DNA of 25,386 nt from a virus (lineage: Duplodnaviria > Heunggongvirae > Uroviricota > Caudoviricetes): the IMG/VR virus record IMGVR_UViG_2563366849_000003; one strand, 5' to 3'. Within the stretch, counting starts at the first letter, position 1; the number at the start of each line of letters is the position of its first letter. A program made the translations under genes and the position numbers. The notes under the pieces were generated by a model that worked only from the letters and a program-made list of their open reading frames with translations, was not told the origin of the DNA and ran no database searches. Positions 1,854 through 24,288 of this stretch are shown here, piece by piece.

Positions 1854-1934
1854 CGCGAGCACCTCTTCCGGTTTTGTTGATGGTGCCATTTTAGTTAATT
1901 TACCCTTATAAAACAAACAGATAAAAACAAAACA

Positions 1935-3577: not shown

Positions 3578-3591
3578 TTTTCGTCACCTCC

Positions 3592-6039: not shown

Positions 6040-6459
6040 TCGTGTTTCCGCTTCGCCGGAGCGCCTTTTCGCGCCATGTGATGAGTTCGGTCAGGCTCAT
6101 GGGATACAGTTCTGATGGCGGCCAGTGAAATATCACTGCCACATCCGCCATCAGGTCATCGACCGAGAGATTTTTCGAAAACGTCACTGCACCGAGTTCG
6201 GAGACAAAAAACCGACCACCTTACCGGCCAGCGCCACAAGGTCAGGCAGTTCCAGCGCGGCGACCTCCTGCTCGGTCAGCATCGGTGCCGTCATGCGCGG
6301 CAGCACCTTAATCAGTGCATCGACTTCGGAGTTTGCGACCGCAGCCAGACTGACACCGCGCAGCGTCCCGGCATTAGGTTTCATCAGCGTGACCTGTTCG
6401 ATAACCTGCTCACCACGCTTGACCGGATTGTCCAGGGTAATCACATTTTCTTTGTTCAT
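6032..6459 (-). CDS. E+E': Tail assembly chaperone E+E' made by programmed -1 ribosomal frameshift (about 142 aa)
   Basis: I translated the -1 frame by hand from the slippery site TTTTTTG (minus strand, 6211..6205). It stays open for 57 codons and stops at TAA 6034..6032, overlapping the T start (ATG 6039..6037). The total of about 142 aa equals the P2 E+E' length. Confidence 0.8.
6184..6459 (-). CDS. E: Tail assembly chaperone E (P2 gpE, 91 aa)
   Basis: 91-aa ORF ending ...KVVGFLSPNSVQ, in the P2 gpE position; a slippery heptamer sits about 7 codons before the stop. Confidence 0.88.
   Translation of the reverse strand: MNKENVITLDNPVKRGEQVIEQVTLMKPNAGTLRGVSLAAVANSEVDALIKVLPRMTAPMLTEQEVAALELPDLVALAGKVVGFLSPNSVQ
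6205..6211 (-). promoter_or_regulatory. -1 frameshift slippery heptamer T-TTT-TTG for E/E'
   Basis: Zero-frame codons GGT TTT TTG read directly; X-XXY-YYZ pattern as in P2 E/E' and lambda G/GT. Confidence 0.8.
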
Positions 6460-6515
6460 GGTTTTCTCACTTCTGAATCGGGGTTAACCGGTCAGCCAGG
6501 CTGACCGGATGAAAA

Positions 6516-7034
6516 TCACAGGCCGATATTGCGGCGGTGTTGCTCCAGCCGGTCGACGCCGTTCACCTTCTCAATCATGTTGATGGTGTCGATTTCGACC
6601 AGCTCCTTACCGTCCATCGTCAGCCGGAAATAGGTGCAGACCACGGAGATTTTCGACTCGGTGTCTTCTCCCTGTTTGCCCTCGCCGGTGTCGATTTCTT
6701 TCTGACGTCCACGCATGACCACCTCGACGGCCACCGTTTCGCCGGTATCGTCGCGCTGGTAAGAGCCTGCAAAACGAATCGGTACGGCATCCACACCGGT
6801 TGCGGCGTAAAGCTCCCAGATAACCGAATCCGGGAAGCCCCCGAGCGACCACTCCATTGACAGCGCATCGTCATCAAGGCCGAGGTCTACCGGTGCGCTT
6901 CCGTTCATCCCCGCACCGCGATAGTTTTCGAGTTTACGGGTCAGTTTTGGCAGCGTGACGGACTTTGCAACGCCCTGATAGCTGTAGCCGTTCAGAAAGA
7001 CGTTCATTAACTTGAGTTTGCGCGGCATTGCCAT
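6516..7034 (-). CDS. FII: Major tail tube protein (P2 gpFII)
   Basis: 172-aa ORF (P2 FII is 172 aa), directly downstream of FI. Confidence 0.9.
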   Translation of the reverse strand: MAMPRKLKLMNVFLNGYSYQGVAKSVTLPKLTRKLENYRGAGMNGSAPVDLGLDDDALSMEWSLGGFPDSVIWELYAATGVDAVPIRFAGSYQRDDTGETVAVEVVMRGRQKEIDTGEGKQGEDTESKISVVCTYFRLTMDGKELVEIDTINMIEKVNGVDRLEQHRRNIGL

Positions 7035-7046
7035 CGGTCAGGCTCC

Positions 7047-8237
7047 TTAATTGCTGTTAACCGAAGTGACCAGATTTGCCAGGTATTTATCGGTAATACG
7101 CTGGCGCAGGGTCAGGTTTTCGAGAGGAGGCACCGGGGTATAGTCGTAGTCGATATACAGTTTTCCGGCCTTGAGGGTTTCCGCATCGTTGGATTCTTCG
7201 CTGAACCAGCAGGTCGCATCCACGATATAGCCGTTTGTTTTCAGCTCACGGAATTTGGCATTGATGCCGTCAACGATGTCGCGAATCAGCGTTGCGGTGA
7301 TAGGCTTGTCCACCGCCCACATATGCGCCTCAGCCATCGTGTCGGCCAGCACCTGCGCGGTGCGGGTGTAGTTTTCAAAGAGGAACAGCGGGTCATCAGA
7401 GCAGGTACGGTTACCCCAGAAGCGGAAACCGTCGCGGCAAATCAGCGTAGTGACGCCTGACTCGTTAAGCAGGTCAGCATCGGTGCCGGACTCCTGCAAA
7501 TCCCAGAATACAGAGGCACTGATGCCGGTAACACCGTTTACCCCGACATTGGACAGCGTTTTATGCCAGCCCTGCTCCTGGTCGATTTTAGCGCGCAGAC
7601 CCAGCGCACGGGCGGTGGCATACGCGGTGGCGGTGGTGCTGCTGACCGTATCCCATGCGAGGAAATCCGGCCAGATGACCATCAGCTCACGCTGGCTGAA
7701 ATTCTGGCGGTAGGCTTTCACCTCGGAAATGGTTTTACAGCCCCATGCGCTGATATACCCGAAAGCGCGCAGCTTCTGACAGACTGATGCCAGTGCAACA
7801 GCCACCTCTTTGGTGTCCAGTCCCGGCACGCCGAGAATACGCGGTTTAACACCGGTTACCGACTCTGCCGCCAGCAGGGCTTTCAGTCCGGTATACTGAC
7901 CGTTTTCGTCAGTGGTGCCGATGATATTGGAAACGGTCTGCGCGAGTTTCGTTTCTTCGTCGTCGCCGGTGCCGTCTTCCACACGCACGACAACGGTGAC
8001 CGGTTTTGACTGGTCGGCGATGGCCTGCAACGATGCCGCCAGCGTGCCTTTTTTACCAGCCTTTGCAATTGCGCTCTGCACATTGGTAATCAGCACCGGT
8101 TTATTGATGGGGAAGGTTTCCGCATCCGCATCGCTGGCCGTGCAGACCATGCCGACAATGGCTGTGGATACGGTGGAAATGACGCGGGTGCCGTCGTTAA
8201 TCTCCAGCACCTGCACGCCGTGATGATAGTCACTCAT
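7047..8237 (-). CDS. FI: Contractile tail sheath protein (P2 gpFI)
   Basis: 396-aa ORF (P2 FI is 396 aa); first gene of the FI-FII-E-T-U-D late operon. Confidence 0.9.
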   Translation of the reverse strand: MSDYHHGVQVLEINDGTRVISTVSTAIVGMVCTASDADAETFPINKPVLITNVQSAIAKAGKKGTLAASLQAIADQSKPVTVVVRVEDGTGDDEETKLAQTVSNIIGTTDENGQYTGLKALLAAESVTGVKPRILGVPGLDTKEVAVALASVCQKLRAFGYISAWGCKTISEVKAYRQNFSQRELMVIWPDFLAWDTVSSTTATAYATARALGLRAKIDQEQGWHKTLSNVGVNGVTGISASVFWDLQESGTDADLLNESGVTTLICRDGFRFWGNRTCSDDPLFLFENYTRTAQVLADTMAEAHMWAVDKPITATLIRDIVDGINAKFRELKTNGYIVDATCWFSEESNDAETLKAGKLYIDYDYTPVPPLENLTLRQRITDKYLANLVTSVNSN

Positions 8238-8330
8238 CCGTTTAACTCCGTGGTTAATGGGTGCAACTATTTTCCGTTGGGTAGTACATGAGACGCTATT
8301 TGACCTGGCTGGTCAGTGGATGAAACAACA

Positions 8331-8360
8331 GATAAAGAAAAGGCGGGCAATCTGCCCGCC
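8331..8360 (-). terminator. Intrinsic terminator-like hairpin (GGCGGGCA-loop-TGCCCGCC) followed by a T-run on the minus strand
   Basis: Perfect 8-bp GC-rich stem at 8342..8349 and 8353..8360 with TTTTCTTTATC following on the minus strand. It lies downstream of the 230-aa cargo gene and next to the late-promoter box. Confidence 0.5.
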
Positions 8361-8378
8361 TGTCCTGATTTGTACACA
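8361..8378 (-). promoter_or_regulatory. Candidate Ogr-dependent late promoter element (TGT-N12-ACA) for the FI operon (PF)
   Basis: TGTCCTGATTTGTACACA fits the P2/P4 late-promoter activator box TGT-N12-ACA, located about 125 bp upstream of the FI start. The -10 element is not confidently identified. Confidence 0.5.
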
Positions 8379-8496
8379 CTCATTTTCCGACTGACAATTT
8401 ACATAGCCAAAACGCTATCAAATCTGACTGCCTGTTTTGAGCGAAGAGGAACCTGAGATTGTGGTATGCTAATTTATGGGGAGCAGGTCAATTGTA

Positions 8497-9189
8497 TTAG
8501 TTATCTTTTTGCCTTTCTTTATCCCATTTCTTTACAGTGGTCTGATACCACTCTTCACGTGCTCGTTGTTCCTCTGCTCTGTCACTTGAATTATAGTTGT
8601 CTGTTTTAATTTTTTTGCTTCCCTGGGAAATCGGCCTCCAGTCTTCTCTAATCTTTTTCATCTGCTCAGCTATCTGTGTCATTGGACTCCTTGCACCTAA
8701 GTAGCTAACCCCCTCGAAAGAAGCCATATCATAAGAATACTCATTCCGCTCTCTTTCAGTTGAGCCCGGCTGTTTAGACCAGCTAATACTAACAGAATAA
8801 ACTTGATCTTTAATCTGGTCATACTTACAAAGACTGCTGTTGAGGGAATGGCCGTTTTTCAATACGCTAACCTTGCTAAATGGTATACCTTTATTTTTTC
8901 TATGTTCTGCATTAACCAGTGGGGGATTAAATCCGACTTCAATATCATAGGCTGGGGCATTTCCGGTATTAGCAATATTGATATCAAAATAAAAAGCAGC
9001 CCAAGAATTTGGTTCAAGAGTCACAACGACATGAGGTTGAACTGATGCGTCAACCATCCTTTTTGTCTCGTCTGCTAATAGCCTTGTTACTCTCCACAAG
9101 AAAAATGTAGCAACTGCTGTTAGCAATGCTGCCAAAGCGGAGATAAGTGTACTTACTGTGTTTATATGCTCTGCGATAAATTCGATCAT
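8497..9189 (-). CDS. Hypothetical membrane-anchored protein (230 aa), cargo gene at the P2 Z/fun position
   Basis: ATG with AAGGA Shine-Dalgarno; predicted N-terminal transmembrane helix (TVSTLISALAALLTAVATFFLW) and a charged C-terminal tail; AT-rich codon usage unlike the flanking tail genes. No family recognised. Confidence 0.6.
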   Translation of the reverse strand: MIEFIAEHINTVSTLISALAALLTAVATFFLWRVTRLLADETKRMVDASVQPHVVVTLEPNSWAAFYFDINIANTGNAPAYDIEVGFNPPLVNAEHRKNKGIPFSKVSVLKNGHSLNSSLCKYDQIKDQVYSVSISWSKQPGSTERERNEYSYDMASFEGVSYLGARSPMTQIAEQMKKIREDWRPISQGSKKIKTDNYNSSDRAEEQRAREEWYQTTVKKWDKERQKDN

Positions 9190-9680: not shown

Positions 9681-9860
9681 ATGGCTGATGATAAGACCAA
9701 AATCGGTACCCCTGACAATGATTTAATAAGTATCAAACAGGATTACGAGAGACGTGATTGGGCTGAAAAGTTTGGAGTTAGCGAGGCCAAACTTGTTCAA
9801 GCCGTACAGGCTGTAGGTCATTCGGCTAAGAAAGTACAGGCATGGCTTAAAGACCATTAA
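9681..9860 (+). CDS. Small DUF3606-like protein (59 aa; an alternative upstream start at 9642 gives 72 aa)
   Basis: MADDKTKIGTPDNDL...DYERRDWAEKFGVSEAKLVQAVQAVG... resembles the DUF3606 pattern as I recall it (MADDK-type N-terminus, conserved Y and W). GAGGA Shine-Dalgarno 9 nt upstream of the 9681 ATG; intrinsic terminator immediately downstream. Confidence 0.55.
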   Translation: MADDKTKIGTPDNDLISIKQDYERRDWAEKFGVSEAKLVQAVQAVGHSAKKVQAWLKDH

Positions 9861-9912: not shown

Positions 9913-10191
9913 ATGGCTAATAATTTATTTATTACTTACGACCTCATTAAAACGAAAGATTATGCGGCTGTGTATGATGCAATTAAATCTTTAGGAAATT
10001 GGGCTTTAACAACTGAATCGAACTGGTATGTTAACTGTAGTTACTCTGCCGAGGATGCAGCCAAAATTGTGAGGGCGGTCATGGATAGTGATGATAAGCT
10101 TATTGTTGTAGACGCAACCAATAACTCAGCTTATTGGTACAATCTCTCAGATGAAGTTAGTAACCAAATTCTGACTGAGTGGAACAAGTAA
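9913..10191 (+). CDS. Hypothetical small protein (92 aa)
   Basis: ORF with GGGAGA Shine-Dalgarno 7 nt upstream of the ATG and a strong intrinsic terminator directly after the stop. No family recognised. Confidence 0.5.
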   Translation: MANNLFITYDLIKTKDYAAVYDAIKSLGNWALTTESNWYVNCSYSAEDAAKIVRAVMDSDDKLIVVDATNNSAYWYNLSDEVSNQILTEWNK

Positions 10192-10220: not shown

Positions 10221-10410
10221 CAGAAACTATCATGATTGAAACATTAAATATACTGGGTTAATTCTTTCATCCTTGCTCCCTTGCTATATGTCCTGAAAGC
10301 GTCCTTTTTAGCCTTCTGCTCAGTATGTCCGGTAATGGCACAGAGCGGACTGCCAGATTAGGCTTTACTCTGTGCCATAGATATGTAAGCTCCCACCAGA
10401 GCTCATACAC

Positions 10411-10938
10411 TTATTGCGGCATTTCCGGCCATTCGGGATTTGCAGGATCCACACGACTGACCAGAACGCTGTAGCGTTCCCATGCTTCCAGTCGTGTGCG
10501 TTCCTCGTCTGTTGCCATATTCAGCCTGACAGCGCGTTCCAGCGGTTGGATGACTGATTCAGCTTCGGAAAGCAATGCGGCCTTTTGTGATTCGGCCTGT
10601 TGTTGTTGCTCGTCTGCCGTATAAATCCGTTTAACCACAGCTCCGTCCCTAAACATCCACTTACCGGAATCATCAGCGCAGCGGTTGGCTGTAATATCTG
10701 GAACCTCAACGACGCTATAACCTTCAGGGTTAAGCGTGGAGGCATCTTTGGTGATGGCGACAATAATATTATTTGCATCGTAAACAATCTTTATTGTGTC
10801 TGGCTGAAAGTTTTTCACTTCCTCATACCAGTTTTTTCCGTCTTCGGACCATAACCAGATAACATCAAAATTCTTTGTTAGCTGATATTGTTCTTTTGTT
10901 TTTGGATTTCCAGACTTAATATTTTTTAAATGCTGCAT
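10411..10938 (-). CDS. G: Tail fiber assembly protein (P2 gpG)
   Basis: 175-aa ORF (P2 G is 175 aa) immediately downstream of H. Confidence 0.85.
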
Positions 10939-10941
10939 AAA

Positions 10942-13077
10942 TTACACCTGTGCGACGTTATACCATGTGCCATTGATGTATTTTTGTATTGGTCTGAATA
11001 CAGCCGGATCATCGCCATCAACAGAGCCAATAATGCCAAGCCCCGTAATTGCATGGCCTGATTTTTCATACATCACGCCTTTTTGCATAGTTTGAACAAC
11101 ACGCGTGCCAAGTCTGACATCTCTCACATAGCGTGAGTCAAAATTGCCATAATTTCCGGGAATAATTTGCGCACCGCAAAGCCAGTTACCGTTATTGTCC
11201 ATGTACGCCTTACCATCGGTGCCATTGGCTGTCCTTGAGTTATTAATCATGTAGATGCCAAATTGCTTATTTCCCAGACCGCCAATCATAAATTTGCGGT
11301 CGGCATGGTCCTGACGAAGTAATGCCTGCGCACCATCGGTGGATACCGCATTGCGTCCCAAAATAACATTCTGGTCACGCATATTAATCCACATGCCGGT
11401 ACTACTGTTAATTGCAAAACGGTTTGCAAATATATCCCCTGTAACATCAAGACCATGCCCCATGCTTATCCGACCAGTTCTAAGATTAAGCGTAAAGGGG
11501 CGTAGTGGCCCTATATCACCATTTTCTCCCTCGTTCTCTCGTGTAGGGATGATATGCAGGCATTCTTCAGAACGGCGAAAAATGGCACCAAAAGATGAAT
11601 TAAATATCCTCAGTGCATTGACTGTCGATATTTTTACTTCACTGCTGAAAAGGGCTTTAACAAGAACAGACAAAGCATCCCATTTAAGATTCATCAGGTC
11701 TTTTGTTGTGGTGCTTTGTTTGCTTCTCCATTTGAAATATTCATTGCCGTTGTCGCCTGTTTCAAACCACATGTATGAATCAGTGTCACCATCGGCATCA
11801 TTTTTAAATCCAATCTTCGCCCAGTCAGTATTTCGAATCCAGGCAAGGATTGAGTCATTTTCAAAAGTAAGCCCACCGGACAAAGTATCGCCATTTTTTT
11901 GCACGGCGTTACCAGCCCTGTTTACCGTTTCCTGTAAACCGAGGTATTCGATAACAGCGGCAACGGTCGATTTCGCAAGAATATCCCGCCCGACTTCTGT
12001 CAGGGTTGCCAGACTGGCAACATCATTCCCCGTAAAATACGGAAACCTGTCTGCTGCAGTAGCAAGCCCGGCCAGCGCCGTCAGGGTGGCATCTTTCGGT
12101 TGCTTACCCGCAAGCGCGTTAGTCATGGTGGTCGCAAAATTCGGGTCGTTGCCCAGCGCCGCCGCCAGCTCGTTCAGCGTATTCAGTGCGTCAGGCGACG
12201 AGTCTACAAGGGCGGCAATCGCGGCCATCACATAAGCCGTACTTGCGATCTGAGTATTATTAGTACCTTTTGGCGCAGTTGGCGTCGTTGGCGTTCCGGT
12301 CAGTGCAGGGCTGTTTAATGGCGCTTTCTTGTTCGTTTCATCCATTACCGTCTTAACGGCTTTTGGTGTTGCGGCGAGCGTTTCAGACATGCTGTTGGTC
12401 GCACTACTTAGCTGGACAAGACCTTTTCGCGCTGTGGTAGCGTCCTGTGCGGTATATTTCCCGTTAGCAAGGTCATATGCGGCCTTAACCGCTTTCGGCG
12501 TTGCGGCCAGTGTTTCAGACGTGCTGTTGGTCGCACTGCTTAACTGAGTAAAACCTTTTGCGGTCAGCGAGGCGTCCGGGTGACGTCGTGACTGTTCGTG
12601 CTCTGCAATTTTGTCATCAACGTAATCCTGTGTCGCCATCACCGTTGTGGTGTCAATGGTCAGCTCCACTGAGGCCACACTGCTGACGATGATGACCATG
12701 CGGCAGGTCTGCGAACGCCCTGAGCCTTCGGCAAGGGCTGGCTTATAACTTTCGGCCATGTTCGCCACGGCAATTAGCGTTCCCGCATCATCGTACAGGC
12801 CAAGTTCACGCATCCAGAAACCGCCCACCTCCGGCGGAATAACCAGCTCTGCGATAATATAATTACTGTTTCGTTTGTCCTGGCTGATTTTGTTCAGCGC
12901 ATGTCGCCAGACTTCGTGGATAAGCCCGGTCTGTCCGGCATCCGGGACAGGCAATTTACCACCGCCATCCCCGACGGCCATCGTGGTAATGTTGACCTTC
13001 CGCCCTCCCGGCGCGGTTGCCGCTGCCAGCTTTGCTGCACCGGCAGTGGTGATAACGGTTCTGAATTTTGTGCTCAT
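10942..13077 (-). CDS. H: Tail fiber protein (P2 gpH family)
   Basis: 711-aa ORF between I and G with a conserved N-terminal region, internal tandem repeats (LSSATNSxSETLAATPKAVK twice) and a variable C-terminal receptor-binding part. Confidence 0.88.
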   Translation of the reverse strand: MSTKFRTVITTAGAAKLAAATAPGGRKVNITTMAVGDGGGKLPVPDAGQTGLIHEVWRHALNKISQDKRNSNYIIAELVIPPEVGGFWMRELGLYDDAGTLIAVANMAESYKPALAEGSGRSQTCRMVIIVSSVASVELTIDTTTVMATQDYVDDKIAEHEQSRRHPDASLTAKGFTQLSSATNSTSETLAATPKAVKAAYDLANGKYTAQDATTARKGLVQLSSATNSMSETLAATPKAVKTVMDETNKKAPLNSPALTGTPTTPTAPKGTNNTQIASTAYVMAAIAALVDSSPDALNTLNELAAALGNDPNFATTMTNALAGKQPKDATLTALAGLATAADRFPYFTGNDVASLATLTEVGRDILAKSTVAAVIEYLGLQETVNRAGNAVQKNGDTLSGGLTFENDSILAWIRNTDWAKIGFKNDADGDTDSYMWFETGDNGNEYFKWRSKQSTTTKDLMNLKWDALSVLVKALFSSEVKISTVNALRIFNSSFGAIFRRSEECLHIIPTRENEGENGDIGPLRPFTLNLRTGRISMGHGLDVTGDIFANRFAINSSTGMWINMRDQNVILGRNAVSTDGAQALLRQDHADRKFMIGGLGNKQFGIYMINNSRTANGTDGKAYMDNNGNWLCGAQIIPGNYGNFDSRYVRDVRLGTRVVQTMQKGVMYEKSGHAITGLGIIGSVDGDDPAVFRPIQKYINGTWYNVAQV
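12352..12570. repeat. Imperfect tandem direct repeat (about 133-bp period, 2 copies) inside the tail-fiber gene H
   Basis: CTTAACGGCTTTTGGTGTTGCGGCGAGCGTTTCAGACATGCTGTTGGTCGCACT... recurs as CTTAACCGCTTTCGGCGTTGCGGCCAGTGTTTCAGACGTGCTGTTGGTCGCACT...; it encodes the repeated fibre motif. Confidence 0.7.
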
Positions 13078-13087
13078 TCTTCCTCAC

Positions 13088-13618
13088 TTATCCGGGGTAA
13101 ACCGTAATTACATCGCCGTCGTAAGCCACACCACCGGCGAACAGGTAGCCGGGAATGTCCCGGGTAATGTTCAGACCAATAAGGTGACGGCTTGCAGGTT
13201 TGGCATCGGCAATCAGCCGTTCCATTTCCTGATACATTGCCTCTGTGATACCGCTTTCCAGTACACCAATATCAAGCCGGAAGGTGCCGGGCGGGTCACT
13301 GTTTTCCCACCACTCCGTCACGTTGATGAGATAGCCGAGCGGCTCCACCACACGCCGGATTGCACCTATCGTGCCCTTATGACAGTGGATGAAATACGCA
13401 TCGCGGATAACGGCGCGTTTTGTCGCTTCCGGCCACTTTTCATCCCACCTGTCGACCGAAAACGCCCACGCCAGCCACGGCAGCAGATTTGCCGGGCAGG
13501 TGTCCGGGTTCCACAGCTCACGAATACTGACCGGTGTTTTTTCAATTTCCGCACAGGCTTTTGCGGCGGCAACTTCAAGCGGTGATGAGCCGGTCGGCAG
13601 CAGTCGCGAATCACTCAT
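13088..13618 (-). CDS. I: Baseplate assembly protein I (P2 gpI)
   Basis: 176-aa ORF (P2 gpI is 176 aa), overlapping the J stop by 8 nt. Confidence 0.88.
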   Translation of the reverse strand: MSDSRLLPTGSSPLEVAAAKACAEIEKTPVSIRELWNPDTCPANLLPWLAWAFSVDRWDEKWPEATKRAVIRDAYFIHCHKGTIGAIRRVVEPLGYLINVTEWWENSDPPGTFRLDIGVLESGITEAMYQEMERLIADAKPASRHLIGLNITRDIPGYLFAGGVAYDGDVITVYPG

Positions 13619-14519
13619 CCGAGCCTCCGGTCACGACGCGGTATTCGGTACAGAAAGACGCCTGCGTACTGTTGAGCACGATGTCGGCCAGCGGTGCAGC
13701 CAGCTCGACACGCTGCACGCCTTCCACATGCAAAGCGGCATAAATGGCAGACAGACGGATGTCGCGCCCCAGCCGGTGCTGTGCCGTGATATACGCTTCC
13801 AGTTTTTTCACGGCGGCAGCGCGTATGGGTTCGCTTTCGGGACCAGGGTAAAGGTAAAGCGTGGCGTTTATCTGGTATTCAACGATGGCGGCAGACTGCA
13901 CGGTCACGCGGTCGGCCACCGGCCTGACGTCCTCGCCATTAAGGGCGTTACGCACCACGGCCAGCAGGTCTTCGGATGCAACACCGTTATTTTCACGTGA
14001 CAGCACAGAGATGGTGACGCAGGCCGGAGACGGACTGGTTACAGAAATATCCGCGACACGCCCGTCGGCACTGCGACCATGATACTGATAAGCACCCACC
14101 GACCCGGCGACGCTTAAGCCCTCAAACGCCTGCTGAATACGCAGACGATAATCGGTGTCAGATTCCATCACTGCCGGTGTCGGCGGAATGGTCGAATCAT
14201 CTGCCGGGGTGATAGTCAGGCGCGTGGTGTTGTAATTGGCACCAATCACATCAAGGTCATTACCGGCGGCACAGGCCAGCATCACCGCCCGTGCGGCCTC
14301 ATTCACACGCTGACGCCAGATAAGCTCACGATAAGCATTTTCCTCCAGCAGTTTGGCGAGAGGCTCAGATTCCAGCGTCAGGGTACGGGCGACCGCCTCC
14401 TGCTGGTCTTCCGGGTAAAGGGAAATCAGTGTCGCCTTGCGTTCGGCGAGAATGGTTTCAAAGTCCAGCTCCTCGACCACATCCGGTGCGGGTAGCTGGT
14501 TCAGGTCGATAATCGGCAT
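13611..14519 (-). CDS. J: Baseplate assembly protein J (P2 gpJ)
   Basis: 302-aa ORF (P2 gpJ is 302 aa) between W and I. Confidence 0.88.
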   Translation of the reverse strand: MPIIDLNQLPAPDVVEELDFETILAERKATLISLYPEDQQEAVARTLTLESEPLAKLLEENAYRELIWRQRVNEAARAVMLACAAGNDLDVIGANYNTTRLTITPADDSTIPPTPAVMESDTDYRLRIQQAFEGLSVAGSVGAYQYHGRSADGRVADISVTSPSPACVTISVLSRENNGVASEDLLAVVRNALNGEDVRPVADRVTVQSAAIVEYQINATLYLYPGPESEPIRAAAVKKLEAYITAQHRLGRDIRLSAIYAALHVEGVQRVELAAPLADIVLNSTQASFCTEYRVVTGGSDE

Positions 14520-14523
14520 GGTT

Positions 14524-14871
14524 TCAACTCACAGGGATGGTTAACGAAAGTGGCTGGCCGGTGTCGTTGTGCTGGCCGGTCAAAGTGACAGTCATTCGCC
14601 CGTCAAAACTGCGCTCAGTGGTGACGGATGACAGGGTGACGCGGGGTTCCCATTTCAGCACCGCCATGTAACAGGCGACCTTAATCTGCAACTCAAGCGC
14701 CAGAGTCTGCGGCTGGTCAATCATTGACGCCAGCAACGAGCCGTAATCACGACGCATCACCCGTGAGCCGACCGGTGTGCGCAGGATATCGCCGATACTC
14801 TGGCTGATATGCTCAAGGTCAGTGACAGTCAGGCCATCACTGCGATTCATTCCGAGATAACGCGCTGTCAT
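14524..14871 (-). CDS. W: Baseplate protein W (P2 gpW, gp25-like)
   Basis: 115-aa ORF (P2 gpW is 115 aa). Confidence 0.88.
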   Translation of the reverse strand: MTARYLGMNRSDGLTVTDLEHISQSIGDILRTPVGSRVMRRDYGSLLASMIDQPQTLALELQIKVACYMAVLKWEPRVTLSSVTTERSFDGRMTVTLTGQHNDTGQPLSLTIPVS

Positions 14872-15872
14872 AGAGGACTCCCGGTTGTGCCGCCGCTGTC
14901 GCCGGGGTGTTTATGGGTATGCAGTACCTTCCCGTTTGATGAGAGTTCACCGCCGGTGTGTTCAATGTTGCCGCGCATCGTCCCGCCCTTCTGCACTTCC
15001 AGCGTGCCGGTAATCAGCCTGTTGGTGCAGACCACCTCCGGTGTGTCCAGGGTAACGCGGGTTGATGCTTTCACCGTGACCACCGGCACCGTGGCAGTAA
15101 CAGAATCAGAAGCCGTCACGCTGGCCGTTTTAATTCCGCTTACCGTGAGTGCACTGGTTTCGGGTTCATACTCAATCACCGCCCCGTCAGGGAAACGGAT
15201 ATGCAGGGCATCCGCCGACGCAGACGGCGCGGGGTTATCACCGGAATAAATCCCCGGCAGAACGAACGCTGTGTCGAGTTCACCGCCCACGGCCAGAATC
15301 AGCACCTGTTCCCCCTCGGAAGGTGCCCACCACGTGCGCGAACGTCCGGCGCGATGGGTCAGCCACTGAAGCCAGTCGGTGCACATGCCGCCGGTCTGCA
15401 CACGGCAGCGACCGGCGTTAAGGTCGGTTTCGACGATAATGCCGGTGCGTATCATGTTGCGCAGTGCGCGCGCGAGTTTCGCACTGGCATCCACACCGCG
15501 ATAACGTTCATAAAGCGACGCGGTCGCCATCGCACACACGGCGCGCTCGTAGTAAAAAACTTTGATGCTTTCACCGTCGATGTCGTCCGCCGGGACGTCC
15601 GCCAGACGCGTAAAACCGGCGGCAATTTTCTGTTCGCGGTACTCGTACAGCTCCGCATTCGTCTCCGCCATGCCTGACTTGATGGCCTCACGCAGACGGG
15701 CGGGGGCGACGGTCTGCTCAAGGCGCATACGTTCCCGGACGCGCTTCGGGTCGATATCGGGAAAAAAGAACGTGTTTTTAATCACCGGCTCGTCGCCTGC
15801 CGGTTGCGGGATGACCACCGTACCCTCACCGGACACGGGAGCCTCCTTTCGCGGAATAATCAGCGTCATCAT
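14868..15872 (-). CDS. In-frame fusion ORF: head completion protein L (N-terminal part) joined to baseplate spike protein V (C-terminal part)
   Basis: Single 354-aa ORF (first Met at 15932; probable start MMTLIIPRK at 15872 with a GAGGTGG Shine-Dalgarno). The N-terminus reads like P2 gpL, the C-terminus (...GNIEHTGGELSSNGKVLHTHKHPGDSGGTTGSPL) like P2 gpV. In P2, L and V are separated by X, Y, K, lysA/B/C, R and S, all absent here. The junction is inferred near 15450..15530. Confidence 0.6.
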   Translation of the reverse strand: MMTLIIPRKEAPVSGEGTVVIPQPAGDEPVIKNTFFFPDIDPKRVRERMRLEQTVAPARLREAIKSGMAETNAELYEYREQKIAAGFTRLADVPADDIDGESIKVFYYERAVCAMATASLYERYRGVDASAKLARALRNMIRTGIIVETDLNAGRCRVQTGGMCTDWLQWLTHRAGRSRTWWAPSEGEQVLILAVGGELDTAFVLPGIYSGDNPAPSASADALHIRFPDGAVIEYEPETSALTVSGIKTASVTASDSVTATVPVVTVKASTRVTLDTPEVVCTNRLITGTLEVQKGGTMRGNIEHTGGELSSNGKVLHTHKHPGDSGGTTGSPL

Positions 15873-15971
15873 GACCACCTCTGAAAAGTCGGGCGGTGGA
15901 CGCCGGTGCAGTGTCAGGTGATTCACCCTCACTGACCGGCGTGCCGCCCTGGCGCGGGGCGCATTCGGTTG

Positions 15972-16715
15972 TTAACTGGCTTTCTTTTTCGGGCGTCCAC
16001 GTTTTGCCGGTGTCACGCTCCGGGTCTTACGCGGGGCGCGGGTGGCCGCTTTGGGCTGCGGCTCCGGCTTCGGTTTCAGCTCCCGCTCCAGTCGTTCAAT
16101 CTCTTTTTTGACGCCTGCCTGACAGTCGAGCTGTGTCGCACGTTGCAGGTGCGCCAGCGCACCGGCGGCATCACCACCGTCACGCAGAAACAGACCGGTA
16201 ATTTTGTGCAGCTTTGCGCGCACTTCATCAGGCATGTCAGCCGTGGCGGTCAGTTCAAGGGTCTCCGTCAGCAGGCGGGTATCCACAGACTCACCGGCAG
16301 CGTGGGCGCGCATGGCCGCAAGCGCCACCTCCTCGGTGAACATGTACGGCGGGGTGCGGCGGTGTTTACCCGGCATGGTCAGACCGTACTTCAGGGCATA
16401 ACGGGCAATCTCCAGCGCACCGGCAATATCGCCGGTATCCAGACGCCACAGCATGACCGTCATCAGAATGTCATCCTGTGCACCTTTGCCCTGCTCCAGC
16501 ACGCCGTTCACCCACGGCAACCAGAACGGCAGCAGTTCGCGTTTTTTCGCGGCCTTCAGCTCTTTTGAATAAATCGCTTTCAGTGTGCGCTGGTCTGCGG
16601 CGAGCTTGACCAGCATCTGCTCATAGACAGTTGCATGTCGCAGCGGGGCGGCTTCCCGCTGCGCGGTCATCGCTGCCGAGACCCGCATCATGTGGCGCTG
16701 TGCGGGACTCGTCAT
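15972..16715 (-). CDS. M: Terminase small (endonuclease) subunit (P2 gpM)
   Basis: 247-aa ORF (P2 gpM is 247 aa), basic C-terminal tail, between N and L. Confidence 0.88.
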   Translation of the reverse strand: MTSPAQRHMMRVSAAMTAQREAAPLRHATVYEQMLVKLAADQRTLKAIYSKELKAAKKRELLPFWLPWVNGVLEQGKGAQDDILMTVMLWRLDTGDIAGALEIARYALKYGLTMPGKHRRTPPYMFTEEVALAAMRAHAAGESVDTRLLTETLELTATADMPDEVRAKLHKITGLFLRDGGDAAGALAHLQRATQLDCQAGVKKEIERLERELKPKPEPQPKAATRAPRKTRSVTPAKRGRPKKKAS

Positions 16716-16718
16716 CGG

Positions 16719-17792
16719 TTACGCTCCCGGCTCTGCGGTCGCCCTGGCCGGTGTGGAGAAATCACCGACCTTAATTTTTTCCACCAGACAACCGGCGGCG
16801 TAGTCTTCCACCACGTAATCAATGTTCATTGACTCGTAGTTCTCCACGCGGTCGAGTTTCGGGTTTTCCACAATCACGCGGCGATGGCTGTCATCCATGT
16901 AGTAGATGGACAGGTTTTCCAGCTTCGTGATGAGCATCGCATCCGCCGGGAAGTACGGGACGCGTACCGCCGGCAGGTTACCGATGCGTTTCTGGCTGAT
17001 GATGACGTCAGCGGCCAGCATCTCGCTGTTGTCCTGCTCCTTGTTGACGATAGGGAAATACTTGTCCGCCAGTAGCTGACGTCCCACAATCACCACAAGG
17101 TCAGGGTCTTCCTGATACCACGGCTCAATCAGGTTGTTGGTCGCATCCATCACCAGTGCATCGAGGCTGGCATAATCACCGCCCTTACCCACGCGGATGA
17201 CCTCAGAGGTCGTGCGACCTTCCTCGTCAGTGACCTTGCTCATCACGCGCGCCGGGGCTTCATTGCGGTATTTCTGCAGCCAGCCGACCGCCACATCCTG
17301 CAGCATCGGATTACTGCTGCGGTCAGAGGTTTCGGCACGCCTCACGCCGTTAAAACCGGCCATGATGAAATCAAGGGACTGGCGTTTGATAATGGCGTTA
17401 CGGACACGGAGCTGGAAATCCTGATAACGCGCCCACAGGTCCAGCGTTTTGTAGCGGATATAAAAATCGAAGTTAATCTGGTCGCATTCGTACTTGTTTG
17501 ACGCCAGCTTCGAGAAGTCCTTCGGCTGACGCTCGGTGCCACCGGCGGTGTCGGTGGTGCTGGCGATGGAGCCGGTGACACCGATACCAATTTTTTCCCC
17601 TTTCATTTCGCTGACCGGCACAATGTTGATGCGGGTCAGAAAGTCAGAGGACTCCTGCATGGTGTTCATCAGGGTCTGGGTGACCGACGGTTCAACGGTG
17701 AATTTTTTCGACACATCACCGGCGTCGATGCCGTTCAGTTCGGCAACACGGGACAGGTAGGCATTAAATTTAAAGCGGGTTTCCTGGCGCAT
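16719..17792 (-). CDS. N: Major capsid protein (P2 gpN)
   Basis: 357-aa ORF (P2 gpN is 357 aa). Confidence 0.9.
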   Translation of the reverse strand: MRQETRFKFNAYLSRVAELNGIDAGDVSKKFTVEPSVTQTLMNTMQESSDFLTRINIVPVSEMKGEKIGIGVTGSIASTTDTAGGTERQPKDFSKLASNKYECDQINFDFYIRYKTLDLWARYQDFQLRVRNAIIKRQSLDFIMAGFNGVRRAETSDRSSNPMLQDVAVGWLQKYRNEAPARVMSKVTDEEGRTTSEVIRVGKGGDYASLDALVMDATNNLIEPWYQEDPDLVVIVGRQLLADKYFPIVNKEQDNSEMLAADVIISQKRIGNLPAVRVPYFPADAMLITKLENLSIYYMDDSHRRVIVENPKLDRVENYESMNIDYVVEDYAAGCLVEKIKVGDFSTPARATAEPGA

Positions 17793-17850
17793 AGTTTTTC
17801 CTGAAATTAAGGGTTAATCGTGAAGGTTTTCCCGGACTGACTGACGCCGG

Positions 17851-18705
17851 TCAGCAGTTCGTCATCAGGGCGTCACCGCCACCACCGGTGGCCTTGCTGC
17901 GGCGCTGCTGGGTCAGACTTTCGGTGTGGTCGAGGCTGTTTTTCAGGCGGGTGAATGCCTGGCTGGTTTCATCCGCCCTGTCAGTCACCTCCTGCTTAAG
18001 TGCGGAAAAGGCGGTTTCCACCTCAGCGAGGCGCTGCTCAGTGGCGCTCAGTTTTTCCTGCACATGTTCAGCAACAGCGGTCACCGCTTCATGCACGTCA
18101 TTCAGACGGGCGTCATCGCTGGCCTGTTTGCGGCCAAAAATGGATTTCACCTTTTCGGTCAGGGCGGTGAACACGGTTTCAGGCAGGTCTTCAAATTCCA
18201 GCTCAACAGGCGTTGCCACTGAAATCAGGTTTTCAGGGCTTAATTTGAAGCGGTTCAGGGGGTTGTGTTTTGCCGTGCGGCAGAATTCCAGGTATTCCGT
18301 GCCGAGGCTTGCCGGGTCATCGGTGACGGCCAGCCCCACCAGATAACATTTGCCGGTGTTGGCAAAGTTCGGCTGAATTTCCATTGAGGTATAGACCTTC
18401 TGCGCGGCCTTGTTCATCGCGATAAGGTCATCGGTCGGGGTGATTTTCGCAAACAGCGCCCATTTGCCTTTCAGCGCCGAATCATCGTCAATCTTTTCGG
18501 CCTTCAGTTCGACCACATCGCCATAACGCTTAAAAATACCGTCAGGCAGGATGCCGCGCAGATGTTCCAGGTTAATGCGGCAACCATAGACTCGCGGGTC
18601 AAAGGTTTCGGCCATTTCCTGAATATCCTGCGCACTGATGACACGCCCGTCACAGGTGTCACCCTCAACGCCGATACGAAAGAATTTTGAGACTTTTTTT
18701 GCCAT
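17851..18705 (-). CDS. O: Capsid scaffolding protein (P2 gpO)
   Basis: The ORF is open from 18771, but the start is placed at MAKKVSKFF (18705) to give the 284-aa P2 gpO size; coiled-coil C-terminus. Confidence 0.85.
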   Translation of the reverse strand: MAKKVSKFFRIGVEGDTCDGRVISAQDIQEMAETFDPRVYGCRINLEHLRGILPDGIFKRYGDVVELKAEKIDDDSALKGKWALFAKITPTDDLIAMNKAAQKVYTSMEIQPNFANTGKCYLVGLAVTDDPASLGTEYLEFCRTAKHNPLNRFKLSPENLISVATPVELEFEDLPETVFTALTEKVKSIFGRKQASDDARLNDVHEAVTAVAEHVQEKLSATEQRLAEVETAFSALKQEVTDRADETSQAFTRLKNSLDHTESLTQQRRSKATGGGGDALMTNC

Positions 18706-18878
18706 TGTCAGGAGTCCTGAATAGTGATTAGAGGAGTCACATGTCGGCATCAGTTTCCCGACGATGCGCATCCTCCGCCATCAGTCCCGGATGGCTTATC
18801 ACTGACACAACAGCACCTTAGCGAATCGCGGGGCGCGACTCAGTAGCCTTGCCGTGTATTCATCACGGCGAGGTATTC
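18706..18878. promoter_or_regulatory. Divergent late-promoter region (PO leftward, PP rightward) by synteny
   Basis: Intergenic region between divergently oriented O and P, as in P2. I found no perfect TGT-N12-ACA box here, so this is assigned by position only. Confidence 0.3.
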
Positions 18879-20651
18879 ATGACCATCACCACAGACACCA
18901 CTCTTTTACACGACCCGCGTCGTCAGGCGGCGCTGCTGTACTGGCAGGGGTTTTCCGTGCCGCAGATTGCCGCCATGTTGCAGATGAAACGCCCGACGGT
19001 GCAGAGCTGGAAACAGCGCGACGGCTGGGACAGCGTTGCCCCCATCAGCCGTGTCGAAATGAGTCTGGAAGCGCGGCTGACCCAGCTCATCATCAAACCG
19101 CAGAAAACCGGCGGTGACTTCAAGGAAATTGACCTGCTCGGACGCCAGATTGAACGACTGGCACGGGTCAACCGTTACAGTCAGACCGGCAACGAGGCAG
19201 ACCTTAATCCGAACGTCGCTAACCGCAACAAAGGCGGGCGTCGCAAACCGAAAAAGAATTTTTTCAGTGACGAGGCCATCGAAAAGCTGGAGCAGATTTT
19301 CTTTGAGCAGTCTTTCGAATATCAGTTGCACTGGTATCGCGCCGGGCTTGAGCACCGCATCCGCGATATCCTGAAATCCCGCCAGATTGGCGCAACGTTT
19401 TATTTTTCCCGCGAGGCGCTGCTGCGCGCCCTGAAAACCGGCCATAACCAGATTTTTCTGTCGGCCAGTAAAACGCAGGCGTATGTGTTCCGTGAATACA
19501 TCATCGCCTTTGCCCGGCTGGTTGACGTTGACCTGACCGGTGACCCGATTGTCCTGGGCAATAACGGCGCAAAACTGATTTTTCTCGGCACCAACTCCAA
19601 CACCGCACAGAGCCATAACGGCGACCTGTACGTCGACGAGATTTTCTGGATCCCGAATTTTCAGGTACTGCGTAAGGTGGCATCAGGTATGGCCTCACAG
19701 AGTCACCTGCGCTCGACCTATTTCTCCACCCCGTCCACGCTGGCGCACGACGCCTACCCGTTCTGGTCCGGTGAACTGTTTAACCGGGGACGCGCCAGCG
19801 CCGCCGAACGCGTGGAAATCGACGTCAGTCATAACGCCCTTGCCGGTGGGCTTCTCTGTGCGGACGGCCAGTGGCGGCAGATTGTCACCATTGAGGACGC
19901 CCTGAAAGGCGGCTGCACATTGTTCGACATTGAGCAGCTTAAACGCGAAAACAGCGCCGACGATTTTAAAAACCTGTTCATGTGTGAATTTGTTGACGAC
20001 AAGGCGTCGGTGTTCCCGTTCGAGGAGCTGCAACGCTGCATGATCGACACGCTGGAAGAATGGGAAGACTATGCGCCGTTTGCCGCAAATCCGTTCGGCT
20101 CACGTCCGGTATGGATTGGTTACGACCCGTCACACCGTGGCGACAGCGCCGGATGTGTGGTACTGGCACCGCCGGTGGTGGCCGGTGGCAAATTCAGAAT
20201 ACTTGAGCGTCACCAGTGGAAAGGCATGGACTTTGCCACTCAGGCTGAATCCATCCGCAAACTCACCGAAAAATATAACGTCGAATACATCGGTATTGAT
20301 GCCACCGGCCTCGGTGTCGGCGTGTTCCAGCTCGTGCGCTCGTTCTATCCCGCCGCGCGCGATATCCGCTACACGCCGGAAATGAAAACCGCAATGGTGC
20401 TCAAGGCAAAAGACGTTATCCGCCGTGGCTGTCTGGAATATGACGTCAGCGCCACCGACATCACCAGCTCGTTTATGGCTATCCGCAAGACCATGACCAG
20501 CAGCGGACGCAGTGCCACCTATGAGGCCAGCCGCAGCGAGGAAGCCAGCCACGCCGACCTCGCCTGGGCGACCATGCACGCCCTGTTAAATGAGCCACTC
20601 ACCGCCGGTATCAGCACCCCGCTGACATCCACCATTCTGGAGTTTTACTGA
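18879..20651 (+). CDS. P: Terminase large (ATPase) subunit (P2 gpP)
   Basis: Start placed at MTITTDTTLLHD (18879) to give 590 aa, the P2 gpP size; the stop overlaps the Q start (ATGA). Confidence 0.88.
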   Translation: MTITTDTTLLHDPRRQAALLYWQGFSVPQIAAMLQMKRPTVQSWKQRDGWDSVAPISRVEMSLEARLTQLIIKPQKTGGDFKEIDLLGRQIERLARVNRYSQTGNEADLNPNVANRNKGGRRKPKKNFFSDEAIEKLEQIFFEQSFEYQLHWYRAGLEHRIRDILKSRQIGATFYFSREALLRALKTGHNQIFLSASKTQAYVFREYIIAFARLVDVDLTGDPIVLGNNGAKLIFLGTNSNTAQSHNGDLYVDEIFWIPNFQVLRKVASGMASQSHLRSTYFSTPSTLAHDAYPFWSGELFNRGRASAAERVEIDVSHNALAGGLLCADGQWRQIVTIEDALKGGCTLFDIEQLKRENSADDFKNLFMCEFVDDKASVFPFEELQRCMIDTLEEWEDYAPFAANPFGSRPVWIGYDPSHRGDSAGCVVLAPPVVAGGKFRILERHQWKGMDFATQAESIRKLTEKYNVEYIGIDATGLGVGVFQLVRSFYPAARDIRYTPEMKTAMVLKAKDVIRRGCLEYDVSATDITSSFMAIRKTMTSSGRSATYEASRSEEASHADLAWATMHALLNEPLTAGISTPLTSTILEFY

Positions 20652-21679
20652 TGAGCAAGAAAAAAGGGAAAACACCGCAACCTGCGGCAAAAAAAATGAC
20701 CGCCAGCGCCCCGAAAATGGAGGCATTCACCTTTGGTGAGCCGGTGCCGGTACTCGACCGGCGTGACATTCTGGATTACGTCGAGTGCATCAGTAACGGC
20801 AGATGGTATGAGCCACCGGTCAGCTTTACCGGTCTGGCGAAAAGCCTGCGTGCTGCCGTGCATCACAGCTCACCGATTTACGTCAAACGTAATATTCTGG
20901 CTTCAACGTTTATCCCGCATCCGTGGCTTTCCCAGCAGGATTTCAGCCGCTTTGTACTGGATTTTCTGGTGTTCGGTAATGCGTTTCTGGAAAAGCGTTA
21001 CAGCACCACCGGTAAGGTCATCAGACTGGAAACCTCACCGGCAAAATATACCCGCCGTGGCGTGGAGGAGGATGTTTACTGGTGGGTGCCGTCCTTCAAC
21101 GAGCCGACACCCTTCGCGCCCGGCTCCGTGTTTCACCTGCTGGAGCCGGATATCAATCAGGAGCTGTACGGCCTGCCGGAATATCTCAGCGCCCTTAACT
21201 CTGCCTGGCTGAATGAGTCGGCCACGCTGTTCCGCCGCAAGTATTACGAAAACGGCGCTCATGCCGGATACATCATGTACGTCACTGATGCCGTGCAGGA
21301 TCGCAACGATATCGAAATGCTTCGCGAAAACATGGTCAAGTCGAAAGGCCGCAACAACTTTAAAAACCTGTTTCTCTATGCCCCACAGGGGAAAGCCGAC
21401 GGCATCAAAATTATCCCCCTCAGTGAAGTGGCGACGAAGGACGATTTTTTTAATATCAAAAAAGCCAGCGCCGCTGACCTGCTGGACGCGCACCGCATCC
21501 CCTTTCAGTTGATGGGCGGCAAGCCGGAGAACGTCGGGTCGCTGGGTGATATTGAGAAAGTGGCAAAGGTCTTTGTCCGCAATGAGCTTATCCCGCTACA
21601 GGACAGGATCCGCGAGATAAACGGCTGGCTCAGCGCCGAAGTTATTCAATTCAAAAATTACTCTTTAGACGATAATTAA
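20651..21679 (+). CDS. Q: Portal protein (P2 gpQ)
   Basis: 342-aa ORF (P2 gpQ is about 344 aa), translationally coupled to P. Confidence 0.88.
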   Translation: MSKKKGKTPQPAAKKMTASAPKMEAFTFGEPVPVLDRRDILDYVECISNGRWYEPPVSFTGLAKSLRAAVHHSSPIYVKRNILASTFIPHPWLSQQDFSRFVLDFLVFGNAFLEKRYSTTGKVIRLETSPAKYTRRGVEEDVYWWVPSFNEPTPFAPGSVFHLLEPDINQELYGLPEYLSALNSAWLNESATLFRRKYYENGAHAGYIMYVTDAVQDRNDIEMLRENMVKSKGRNNFKNLFLYAPQGKADGIKIIPLSEVATKDDFFNIKKASAADLLDAHRIPFQLMGGKPENVGSLGDIEKVAKVFVRNELIPLQDRIREINGWLSAEVIQFKNYSLDDN

Positions 21680-21737: not shown

Positions 21738-22310
21738 TTATTTTTTCATATTGTATATAAAGTCACAAATATGCACCAGTGATAATCTGTTATAGTTTTC
21801 CAATGTAAACACAGGATAATTATAGCAAATTTCAGGAGGAGGCAATTGCGAGCGAACAGTTGTTTTTTTAGCTGATTGCTGCCTCCTCGATAATTTACTT
21901 ATTACACCAATGTAATCCACTTTTCTTGACAAATGCCCATGTAAATTCAATACAGAATATAGCCACTTACAAAAATGAATGCCAGTAACTACCTGTTTAG
22001 CCGCACCATTTGAGTTATAAGATTTGAGATCTATTACGATAAAATAATCTACGTCTTTGTGCGACGTAACAAAAATTCCATCACAAACAGAGCATACTCC
22101 TGGTAAAGCAGAAGATTTTAAAAATTTCCAGACTGGTTTAGAAATACTATTAGAATCTAGCGAAAATCCATAGATACCATTTCCGTTTACCAGTAATTTT
22201 TTATTTGTAGCACCTGGGTTCTCTTCGCATACAACCCAGCATTCCTGCTCTCGCATTAATTGAAATGTAGGATCGATGCAACTTTGTATTACATTGATAA
22301 TATTACTCAT
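21738..22310 (-). CDS. Hypothetical Cys/His-rich protein (190 aa), partner of the upstream ATPase; candidate effector
   Basis: The start ATG (22310..22308) overlaps the last codons of the ATPase gene (GATGAGTAA), indicating translational coupling. AT-rich. Contains CxxxC (res 24-28), CxxC (73-76), EE (29-30) and DVD (86-88) motifs. No family confidently recognised. Confidence 0.6.
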   Translation of the reverse strand: MSNIINVIQSCIDPTFQLMREQECWVVCEENPGATNKKLLVNGNGIYGFSLDSNSISKPVWKFLKSSALPGVCSVCDGIFVTSHKDVDYFIVIDLKSYNSNGAAKQVVTGIHFCKWLYSVLNLHGHLSRKVDYIGVISKLSRRQQSAKKTTVRSQLPPPEICYNYPVFTLENYNRLSLVHICDFIYNMKK

Positions 22311-23736
22311 CTACATCCTCACTATCAGAGGCATTCTCCACCAAGGAGTAATATATTTCATCATTATCGTCATTAATGGCATTAATTACTTCATCAAAAG
22401 TTACAGCATTAATCCCTTCATTTGACTTCTGCATTTCATTGACTGAGCCATTATCAAATAGATACGCAGCGACTAGGTTAGAGTCTAAAATTGAGTCGAT
22501 GCTAATCCCTTGCTTCTGCATGATAGCGTTTCGTTTTTCAATCATATTTTCAGAAACGCCATGCAACATAATCAAGCTATTGATTTCTTTCACAAAATAA
22601 TCACTGTGAGTACTAACAATAACCCGAATACCAGAGTTAACTAGCTTTGCTAAAAATCTTGCAATTACTCGCTGATTTGACGGGTGTAAATTTAACTCGG
22701 GTTCGTCAATCATTAAAATATCACCAGTTTTTGCTTGGTGCTCTAAATAAAACCACAGGCCAAACAAACTTTTAACAGTGGATGACGATAAATGAAGTTC
22801 AATTTTACTTGCAGGTGTCTTACCTTTCTTATACGTTGAAAAATAAATCTGCCCTTCAGGATCAACTGAATATTTTCCTGAAATTATTTTTTTTACTTCT
22901 TCTGCTAATTTATGAAATTGGCCATTTTTATTTTTCCTATTAACCTTAATTTCATTAAGCCAGTCTATGTAATTTGCTATAGGAGCAGAATACTTAGACT
23001 TCATTACATCCATTAATAGTGAGTTCAGATCGAACTGTTCTTTTGAGGCGTGGTGCAATAACGCAGTTCTTCTGGAACTTAATTCATTGAAAAAAAGGTG
23101 CAAGCCATTTCTTTCTGCGGGAATTAAAAATGCTGGGCTTTCATCATACTCTATCTTTAATAACTGACTTAGAGTTAAGTTTATAAACCCATCAATTCTG
23201 GGGAAAGCAGAATCTAGCAGCGTCATTTGTATGATATTGCTATTTTTATCTTTGGATAATAGCATTACTTCTTTTTTGCCGGTTCCTATGACGAGGCTAA
23301 CATCCAATTTTTTTTCATAAACACTTGATACTAATGATTCTTCATCTATAACCCAGTCAAATGTTGAATTAGAAAAAATTTCCTTATCATTAGTGTTGAA
23401 TACATCTTTAAGCATTAAAGATGAATCTTTATTAAATTCTCTTTTGATTAACGTAAAATTATCTTTTATCCACTCAATTACATCTAATTCAAACTTACCA
23501 TTTTCACGAAGAGTTTTGGCAAAATTTGCAACTTGAGGCAATTTTAAAGATGGTGATGGCATATTTAGGAAGCCATATAACCCATACATAACCCATGTTT
23601 TACCAGTATTATTTTTTCCGCATAAAAGCGTTAAAGGTTTTGCATTAATTTCTCCTGTAGAGATACACCCAATGTTTTTAAATGAAAATCTCCATGATGC
23701 TAATTTTTTTACGTTAATTTCGCTTTGCTTTTTCAT
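22303..23736 (-). CDS. ABC/OLD-type P-loop ATPase (AAA_15/AAA_21-like), 477 aa; candidate anti-phage defence ATPase
   Basis: Walker A GKNNTGKT (res 40-47), signature-like LSSSTVKS (316-323), Walker B/D-loop DILMIDEPELNLHP (339-352), H-loop STHS (375-378), acidic C-terminal tail; AAGGAA Shine-Dalgarno; AT-rich. Confidence 0.7.
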   Translation of the reverse strand: MKKQSEINVKKLASWRFSFKNIGCISTGEINAKPLTLLCGKNNTGKTWVMYGLYGFLNMPSPSLKLPQVANFAKTLRENGKFELDVIEWIKDNFTLIKREFNKDSSLMLKDVFNTNDKEIFSNSTFDWVIDEESLVSSVYEKKLDVSLVIGTGKKEVMLLSKDKNSNIIQMTLLDSAFPRIDGFINLTLSQLLKIEYDESPAFLIPAERNGLHLFFNELSSRRTALLHHASKEQFDLNSLLMDVMKSKYSAPIANYIDWLNEIKVNRKNKNGQFHKLAEEVKKIISGKYSVDPEGQIYFSTYKKGKTPASKIELHLSSSTVKSLFGLWFYLEHQAKTGDILMIDEPELNLHPSNQRVIARFLAKLVNSGIRVIVSTHSDYFVKEINSLIMLHGVSENMIEKRNAIMQKQGISIDSILDSNLVAAYLFDNGSVNEMQKSNEGINAVTFDEVINAINDDNDEIYYSLVENASDSEDVDE

Positions 23737-23987: not shown

Positions 23988-24006
23988 GTGCTTTCCCCGC
24001 CTCGCC
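23988..24006 (-). other. P2 cos site (19-nt cohesive-end sequence GGCGAGGCGGGGAAAGCAC on the minus strand)
   Basis: Plus-strand GTGCTTTCCCCGCCTCGCC is the exact reverse complement of the P2 cohesive-end sequence as I recall it; it sits in the expected position between Q and the early region. Confidence 0.8.
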
Positions 24007-24288
24007 CGCCCGCTTCACGGGGCGGTTTTAATGCAGTTGCATAGATACTATGGATCCGCACCAGTCCTGACCGCACGCAGCCTGAACGGACATCCCCAGC
24101 GCATGCAAAAACATTCACTTGTTGCATGCATAGCTTTTTAAGTACGCCATACCGCAACTGTACATTTTTAAGCAATTGGCAACTTTAAAAAATTTACATT
24201 GCTTTCAAGACCTTATCATCCGTAGTCTCTGTTTTTTACTTTGAGCTACATCAATAAAATCTCAAACATGTTTAATGCAAAGCCCTTG

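Follow-up and report, generated by a model that had tools for sequence, protein, structure and literature searches.

A probable single deletion joins genes L and V in a P2-like prophage of Escherichia coli KTE155

Prophages of the P2 type are classically not SOS-inducible. In the P2 virion, gpL forms the 12-mer head-to-tail adaptor and contacts the clip of the portal through its C-terminal region, gpR is the tail terminator, gpX is a glue protein of the baseplate and gpV is the trimeric spike found beneath the gpD hub (bioRxiv 10.64898/2026.09.14.750843); in the annotation of P2 (AF063097), Y is given as the holin and K as the endolysin. P2-like elements that are defective but retain their defence genes form a documented class (PMC13586616). 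Here we analyse a 25,386-nt stretch of DNA from E. coli KTE155, referred to as the window, in which an initial annotation made from the sequence alone had described a defective prophage exhibiting a fusion of the genes for head completion (L) and for the baseplate spike (V).

Layout of the prophage and its cargo

The exact 334-aa fusion protein is found in GenBank as EOW60789.1 from E. coli KTE155 (scaffold KE137288.1 of GCA_000408785.1), a strain for which a literature search found no paper. The scaffold stems from a 2013 short-read draft: the window itself is gap-free, a run of N starts right after position 25386 and the next 10 kb contain N-runs of 555, 3,940 and at least 2,906 nt around a 2.1-kb piece that extends from orf80 to the N-terminus of gene A. 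Fragments of gene A and orf80-83 are what was assembled of the early region, with int-C-cox-B falling into the scaffold gaps. We also observed a 453-bp piece of gene A (P2 29198-29650) that is misplaced beyond 25386 (L130, 1-10000); together with the fragmentation of the scaffold, this misplaced piece may reflect repeated P2-like sequence in the KTE155 genome.

Comparison with phage P2 (AF063097) by blastn revealed that the window contains a P2-like prophage in reverse orientation. The left 1.5 kb is host DNA with yegQ/trhP and the CyaR sRNA, and the prophage has its insertion site at the 3' end of cyaR, adjoining yegQ; the alignment stops at P2 position 24382, which is the edge of the attP core. 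The CyaR/RyeE sRNA (1445-1530, plus strand; 100.7 bits with Rfam) overlaps the att core of the prophage, with P2 homology present from 1507 onwards. The ogrK remnant of K-12 and phage W-phi use the same yegQ-cyaR/ogrK site as the KTE155 prophage, and strain H14 displays the same arrangement at its yegQ site.

The att core and the genes ogr, D, U, T, E, FII and FI (1507-8444, minus strand) correspond to P2 24382-17441, collinear and all intact. The block of G, H, I, J, W and V (10327-15478) corresponds to P2 15358-10333, within which the portion comprising 'V, W, J, I and H (11653-15478; P2 14158-10333) shows 96.4% identity, and the block of L', M, N, O, P and Q (15477-21663) corresponds to P2 6395-209 with 98.0% identity. 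Intact genes in these blocks include those for gpW (14524-14871, minus strand) and for gpM, the small terminase subunit (15972-16715, minus strand), which lies directly upstream of the fusion, as well as N and O (minus strand) and P and Q (plus strand), encoding capsid, scaffold, large terminase and portal (16719-21679). The cos region (23988-24035) is identical to the right end of P2 at 48 of 48 nt, and the end of gene A gives a further P2 match at 24914-25386. Using tblastn, Q, P, O, N, M, W, J, I, H, G, FI, FII, E, T, U, D and ogr were each recovered at full length as one HSP, and these 17 remaining late genes exhibit 95-100% amino-acid identity to P2, with the exception of the variable H. 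This tail-fibre gene (10942-13077, minus strand) encodes 711 aa as compared to 669 aa in P2, with 76% identity, and its internal repeats at ~12352-12559 cross-match P2 at two positions, as is usual for host-range mosaicism. The collinear order of the late genes outside the deleted block, the high identity to P2, the cos region and the att core place the element among the P2-like (Peduovirus) prophages.

Between Q and cos (21738-23736, minus strand), the prophage carries a 477-aa AAA_15/AAA_21 ATPase and a 190-aa partner, which PADLOC matched to PD-T4-4 A (E=2e-112, profile positions 2-458 of 460) and PD-T4-4 B (E=1e-15): the cargo adjoining Q is predicted to be an intact two-gene PD-T4-4 defence system, and the description of this cargo as intact in the initial annotation agrees with this. 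Strain H14, in which the L-V block is intact, has the same pair. The position of the pair is on the Q side of cos and not at the old/tin position of P2. The cargo at the Z/fun position of P2 (8445-10326) gave no match to a defence family; it includes a 230-aa ORF (8497-9189, minus strand) with no Pfam or PADLOC match, a 59-aa DUF3606 protein (9681-9860, plus strand) and a 92-aa ORF (9913-10191, plus strand). In strain H14, a Shedu nuclease is found at this position instead. At the orf91/tin/old position of P2 (24036-24913), we observed ~0.9 kb without P2 homology in which the only called gene is one of 37 aa, and this hotspot appears to be empty in the KTE155 prophage.

The L-V fusion and the missing block

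The initial annotation had proposed that a 354-aa ORF represents an in-frame fusion of L and V, and this is borne out by blastn, by the codon-level join and by Pfam alike. The ORF (14868-15932, minus strand) is the maximal reading frame, counted from a GTG further upstream; translation probably begins at the ATG at 15872, which is the start of gpL itself and affords a fusion CDS of 334 aa (14868-15872, minus strand), the stop of which overlaps the start of W. GenBank labels the product as head completion/stabilization protein, which is a mis-annotation of the chimera. The L part (15477-15872, minus strand) comprises gpL codons 1-132 of 169, the C-terminal 37 aa being lost, and the Phage_GPL domain (PF05926) is matched at profile positions 1-104 of 139 only, hence not at full length. 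The V part (14868-15476, minus strand) comprises gpV codons 10-211 and the stop codon, and here the features of a gpV spike are all present: a complete Phage_base_V OB domain (PF04717), the beta-helical spike trimer (Phage_spike, PF18715) and the complete His-rich apex motif. Residues 132-334 of the fusion align with residues 9-211 of the P2 gpV structure (PDB ID: 3QR8) with 97% identity; the first 9 residues of gpV are replaced by 132 aa of L.

Alignment with P2, suggested in the initial annotation as the means of finding the breakpoint, located it at 15477/15478: the two P2 alignments overlap by 2 nt at this position, and AA on the coding strand is the only sequence common to both partners. 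The CTCGCGCGCGCAC tract of V follows directly 3' of this 2-nt microhomology. Across the junction, the sequence is ...GCCAGTGCGAA[A|C]TCGCGCGCGCAC..., and the join on the coding strand is ...GGATGCCAGTGCGAAA to CTCGCGCGCGCACTGCGC..., where V codon 10 (CTC, Leu) comes directly after L codon 132 (AAA, Lys) and the frame is kept. Such an in-frame join is a 1-in-3 chance event and is unremarkable alone.

Relative to P2, 3,939 bp are missing, and relative to the prophage of strain 504239, which is without orf30, the figure is 3,065 bp; the 3 to 3.5 kb estimated initially was thus a fair value. Lost are the last 37 codons of L (133-169), the lysis genes Y, K, lysA, lysB and lysC and the three tail genes X, R and S, along with the terminator of the O operon, the S-V spacer or cargo, the Ogr-dependent promoter of V and the V codons 1 to 9; when compared to P2, orf30 is lost as well, and many relatives exhibit the same V 5' end without orf30. 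In a tblastn search with all P2 proteins, X, Y, K, lysA, lysB, lysC, R, S and orf30 were absent from the 25.4-kb window, in line with the claimed loss of the genes from X to S. No terminator-like site was found on the minus strand from M to W. The deletion is the sole lesion visible in the late region.

The junction proved to be a singleton. Of 5,426 complete E. coli genomes, 1,593 gave matches to a 400-bp junction probe, yet none of these matches spanned the join, with 0 places in these genomes at a coverage of at least 80%, and the exact 28-mer over the join was absent from species-representative genomes, IMG/VR and JGI metagenomes. Among ~15 billion proteins, the exact fusion protein is found on one contig, and no other GPL+V protein was identified in 5.8 billion protein clusters, where all matches cover the V part only. 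The closest relatives are H14 and S21 (97.9% identity, 91% coverage), and H14, S21 and the likewise closely related 504239 all display the full L-X-Y-K-lysA-lysB-lysC-R-S-V block at the corresponding position.

Probable origin and predicted consequences of the deletion

We consider it probable that a P2-like (Peduovirus) prophage was hit by one spontaneous, recent and private illegitimate deletion that created the L'::'V chimera, as a case of ordinary prophage decay. One such illegitimate deletion of ~3.1-3.9 kb, with the 2-nt microhomology at its join, would have taken X, Y (holin), K (endolysin), lysA/B/C, R, S and any cargo between S and V, and would also have removed the terminator of the O operon and the promoter of V that depends on Ogr. 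The two ends would have come together in frame by chance, which makes the 334-aa L'::'V chimera a likely by-product rather than a designed protein. With late transcription switched on, the O promoter would drive expression of the chimera within a single unit, O-N-M-L'V-W-J-I-H-G: as neither the terminator of the O operon nor the V promoter is left and there is no terminator-like site between M and W, transcription of W-J-I-H-G would likewise have to come from the O promoter. That the deletion is very recent and private, as opposed to having been retained over a long time under selection, we infer from the singleton junction in combination with the intact state of all other late genes.

Of the essential late-gene set of a viable P2-type phage, X, Y, K, R and S are missing from the window, whilst L is present in truncated form and V with a fusion at its N-terminus. 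The L part of the chimera would be without the C-terminal segment that binds the portal, whilst the V part would carry 132 additional residues at its N-terminus, on the side pointing to the gpD hub. Judging from the genetics and structure of P2, the prophage could neither complete its heads nor assemble tails nor lyse its host. The initial annotation had described the prophage as defective for lysis and tail assembly, and this assessment seems sound with X, Y, K, R and S gone; loss of the gpL C-terminus would extend it to head completion.

A first alternative is that the junction represents an assembly artefact, or minority chimeric molecules, and that the true KTE155 prophage is intact. We regard this as improbable, in spite of the fact that the genome is a 2013 draft, that the sequence just past the window is gapped and contains a misplaced contig, and that the junction was seen in one assembly only: the junction lies within ~25 kb of gap-free sequence, and only 2 nt are common to its two sides, whereas erroneous joins by graph assemblers arise where k-mers are shared. 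Furthermore, similar microhomology junctions into V were found in two other samples, in two different assemblies each, which shows that deletions of this kind do happen.

The initial annotation favoured a domesticated prophage, in which lysis and virion completion have been lost and selection for the defence cargo keeps the element in place. The presence of the intact PD-T4-4 pair and other cargo is consistent with this, as is the report of defective P2-like elements with conserved defence genes (PMC13586616), and general reasoning suggests that loss of the lysis genes lifts a cost on the host. However, the locus shows no sign of age or inheritance, given that the junction is a singleton; 17 late genes are intact, whilst a long-domesticated element would be expected to show further lesions; and intact relatives such as H14 carry the same PD-T4-4, which indicates that the cargo is independent of the deletion. 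We thus do not follow the initial annotation on this point and rate domestication as slightly less probable even than an artefact. The wider caution is that intact cargo combined with lost lysis genes does not equate to domestication without evidence of inheritance.

The last alternative, which the initial annotation had itself allowed for, is that a P2 relative truly encodes one bifunctional protein and has its lysis and R/S genes at another position in the phage, and this can be dismissed with near certainty: whilst the frame is open with a normal L start and V stop, both halves show 96-98% nucleotide identity to separate P2 genes up to one junction, the match to the GPL domain breaks off at profile position 104 of 139, no second such protein exists in the 5.8 billion clusters, the lysis and tail genes are found nowhere in the window from att to gene A, and the unassembled remainder is the early region, which does not contain such genes in P2.

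A single deletion in an otherwise intact P2-like prophage hence stands as the preferred reading, and as such the locus offers a clean and datable view of how prophage decay begins: a single lesion with the rest intact. It adds one more prophage crippled by a spontaneous deletion, found in the draft genome of a single clinical E. coli, and matters little in itself; the process is known and the instance is ordinary, and interest is low apart from a possible breakpoint hotspot.

The breakpoint in V and comparison with related prophages

Further one-off chimeras were identified among the V matches: P0017 (N 1-139 with V 1-211), P0018 (R 1-74 with V 9-211), P0020 (R 1-87 with V 10-211) and P0023 (V 1-198 with I 37-176). 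The two R-V junctions, each recovered by two different assemblies, join GGCCAGAAA to CTCGCGCGCGCAC in P0020 and CTGCGGGAA to CTCGCGCGCGCAC in P0018, and the junction in the KTE155 window joins GTGCGAAA to CTCGCGCGCGCAC. Thus, three independent deletions (L132-V10 here, R87-V10 in contig L004 at ~8258 and R74-V9 in contig L006 at ~7857) end at the identical V nucleotide with different left ends, and each exhibits a 2-4 nt (GG)AA microhomology. The common V endpoint corresponds to P2 nt 10333/10334 (window 15465-15478, V codons 10-14) and lies next to an alternating-CG tract, CGCGCGCGC. In the fourth fusion, N-V (contig L128 at ~2420), the endpoint is found 25 nt upstream, at the ATG of V. The detectable set consists of in-frame fusions that keep most of V, which amounts to ~35-45 codon positions, and the chance of finding 3 of 4 at one site is a few in a thousand, as a rough and post-hoc estimate.

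It is conceivable, though we lean against it, that the 5' end of V is a fragile site for recurrent large leftward deletions in P2-like prophages. If this were true, a short alternating-CG tract would act as a built-in weak point that inactivates a widespread prophage family; confirmation in a large census would suggest a sequence-determined hotspot of prophage inactivation, and this is the sole part of the analysis likely to interest specialists. The shared V breakpoint is an unexplained lead, not a result.

Several candidate explanations for the shared site were rejected. In case of a natural mosaic or cargo-swap boundary, 117 of 117 IMG/VR contigs with the CG tract were found to have normal V codons 1-9 upstream, and the cargo-linked divergence in H14 stops deeper in V, at approximately codon 15. 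A DNA hairpin at the breakpoint was discarded as both strands fold no better than shuffled sequences (z = +1.3 and +0.5), and the likeness by eye between the V site and the nick site of P2 gpA at ori is loose and in the wrong register. Searches with IUPAC patterns for more aberrant junctions at the V site gave 0 matches in viral, metagenome and genome collections, and the two R-V junctions were absent as single pieces from complete genomes: three apparent full-coverage R-V matches, in ABW_A32, ABW_A33 and XJ6.2, turned out to represent another deletion, R'-'S.

In ABW_A32 (L131, NZ_CP067303.1, 12949-15016), R' is fused to 'S, J is lost, I is truncated and V is intact, which indicates that deletion endpoints other than the V site also occur. 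As a separate observation, V codons 1 to ~14 of H14 (L002, 15975-16011) represent a different allele (MNAQYNEILRFIRNM...) that is linked to a different S-V cargo; this linkage implies that the cargo module of the S-V hotspot reaches into the first V codons.

When compared to P2 (AF063097) and to the yegQ-site prophages of strains H14 and W (W-phi), the KTE155 prophage exhibits the same gene order, with 96-99% nucleotide identity in the shared blocks, and it shares cos, att core and integration site with P2 and its relatives, whereas its cargo differs from that of P2 both at the Z/fun position and next to cos. The four other chimeras, namely P0017 (N-V), P0018 and P0020 (R-V) and P0023 (V-I), are like the L-V fusion in being in-frame late-gene chimeras with 2-4 nt microhomology; they differ from it in their left breakpoints and deleted lengths, and the R-V cases, P0018 and P0020, keep the lysis cassette. 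The ogrK/yegZ remnant of K-12 is also a P2-type element disabled by deletion at the same site, and the "incomplete P2-like prophages" described in PMC13586616 are likewise non-viable by deletion, with accessory or defence genes remaining. A deletion-made defective P2-like element with defence genes is therefore of a kind already known; in comparison with such cryptic P2-like elements, the KTE155 prophage is far less decayed, exhibiting a single visible lesion that is private to one genome.
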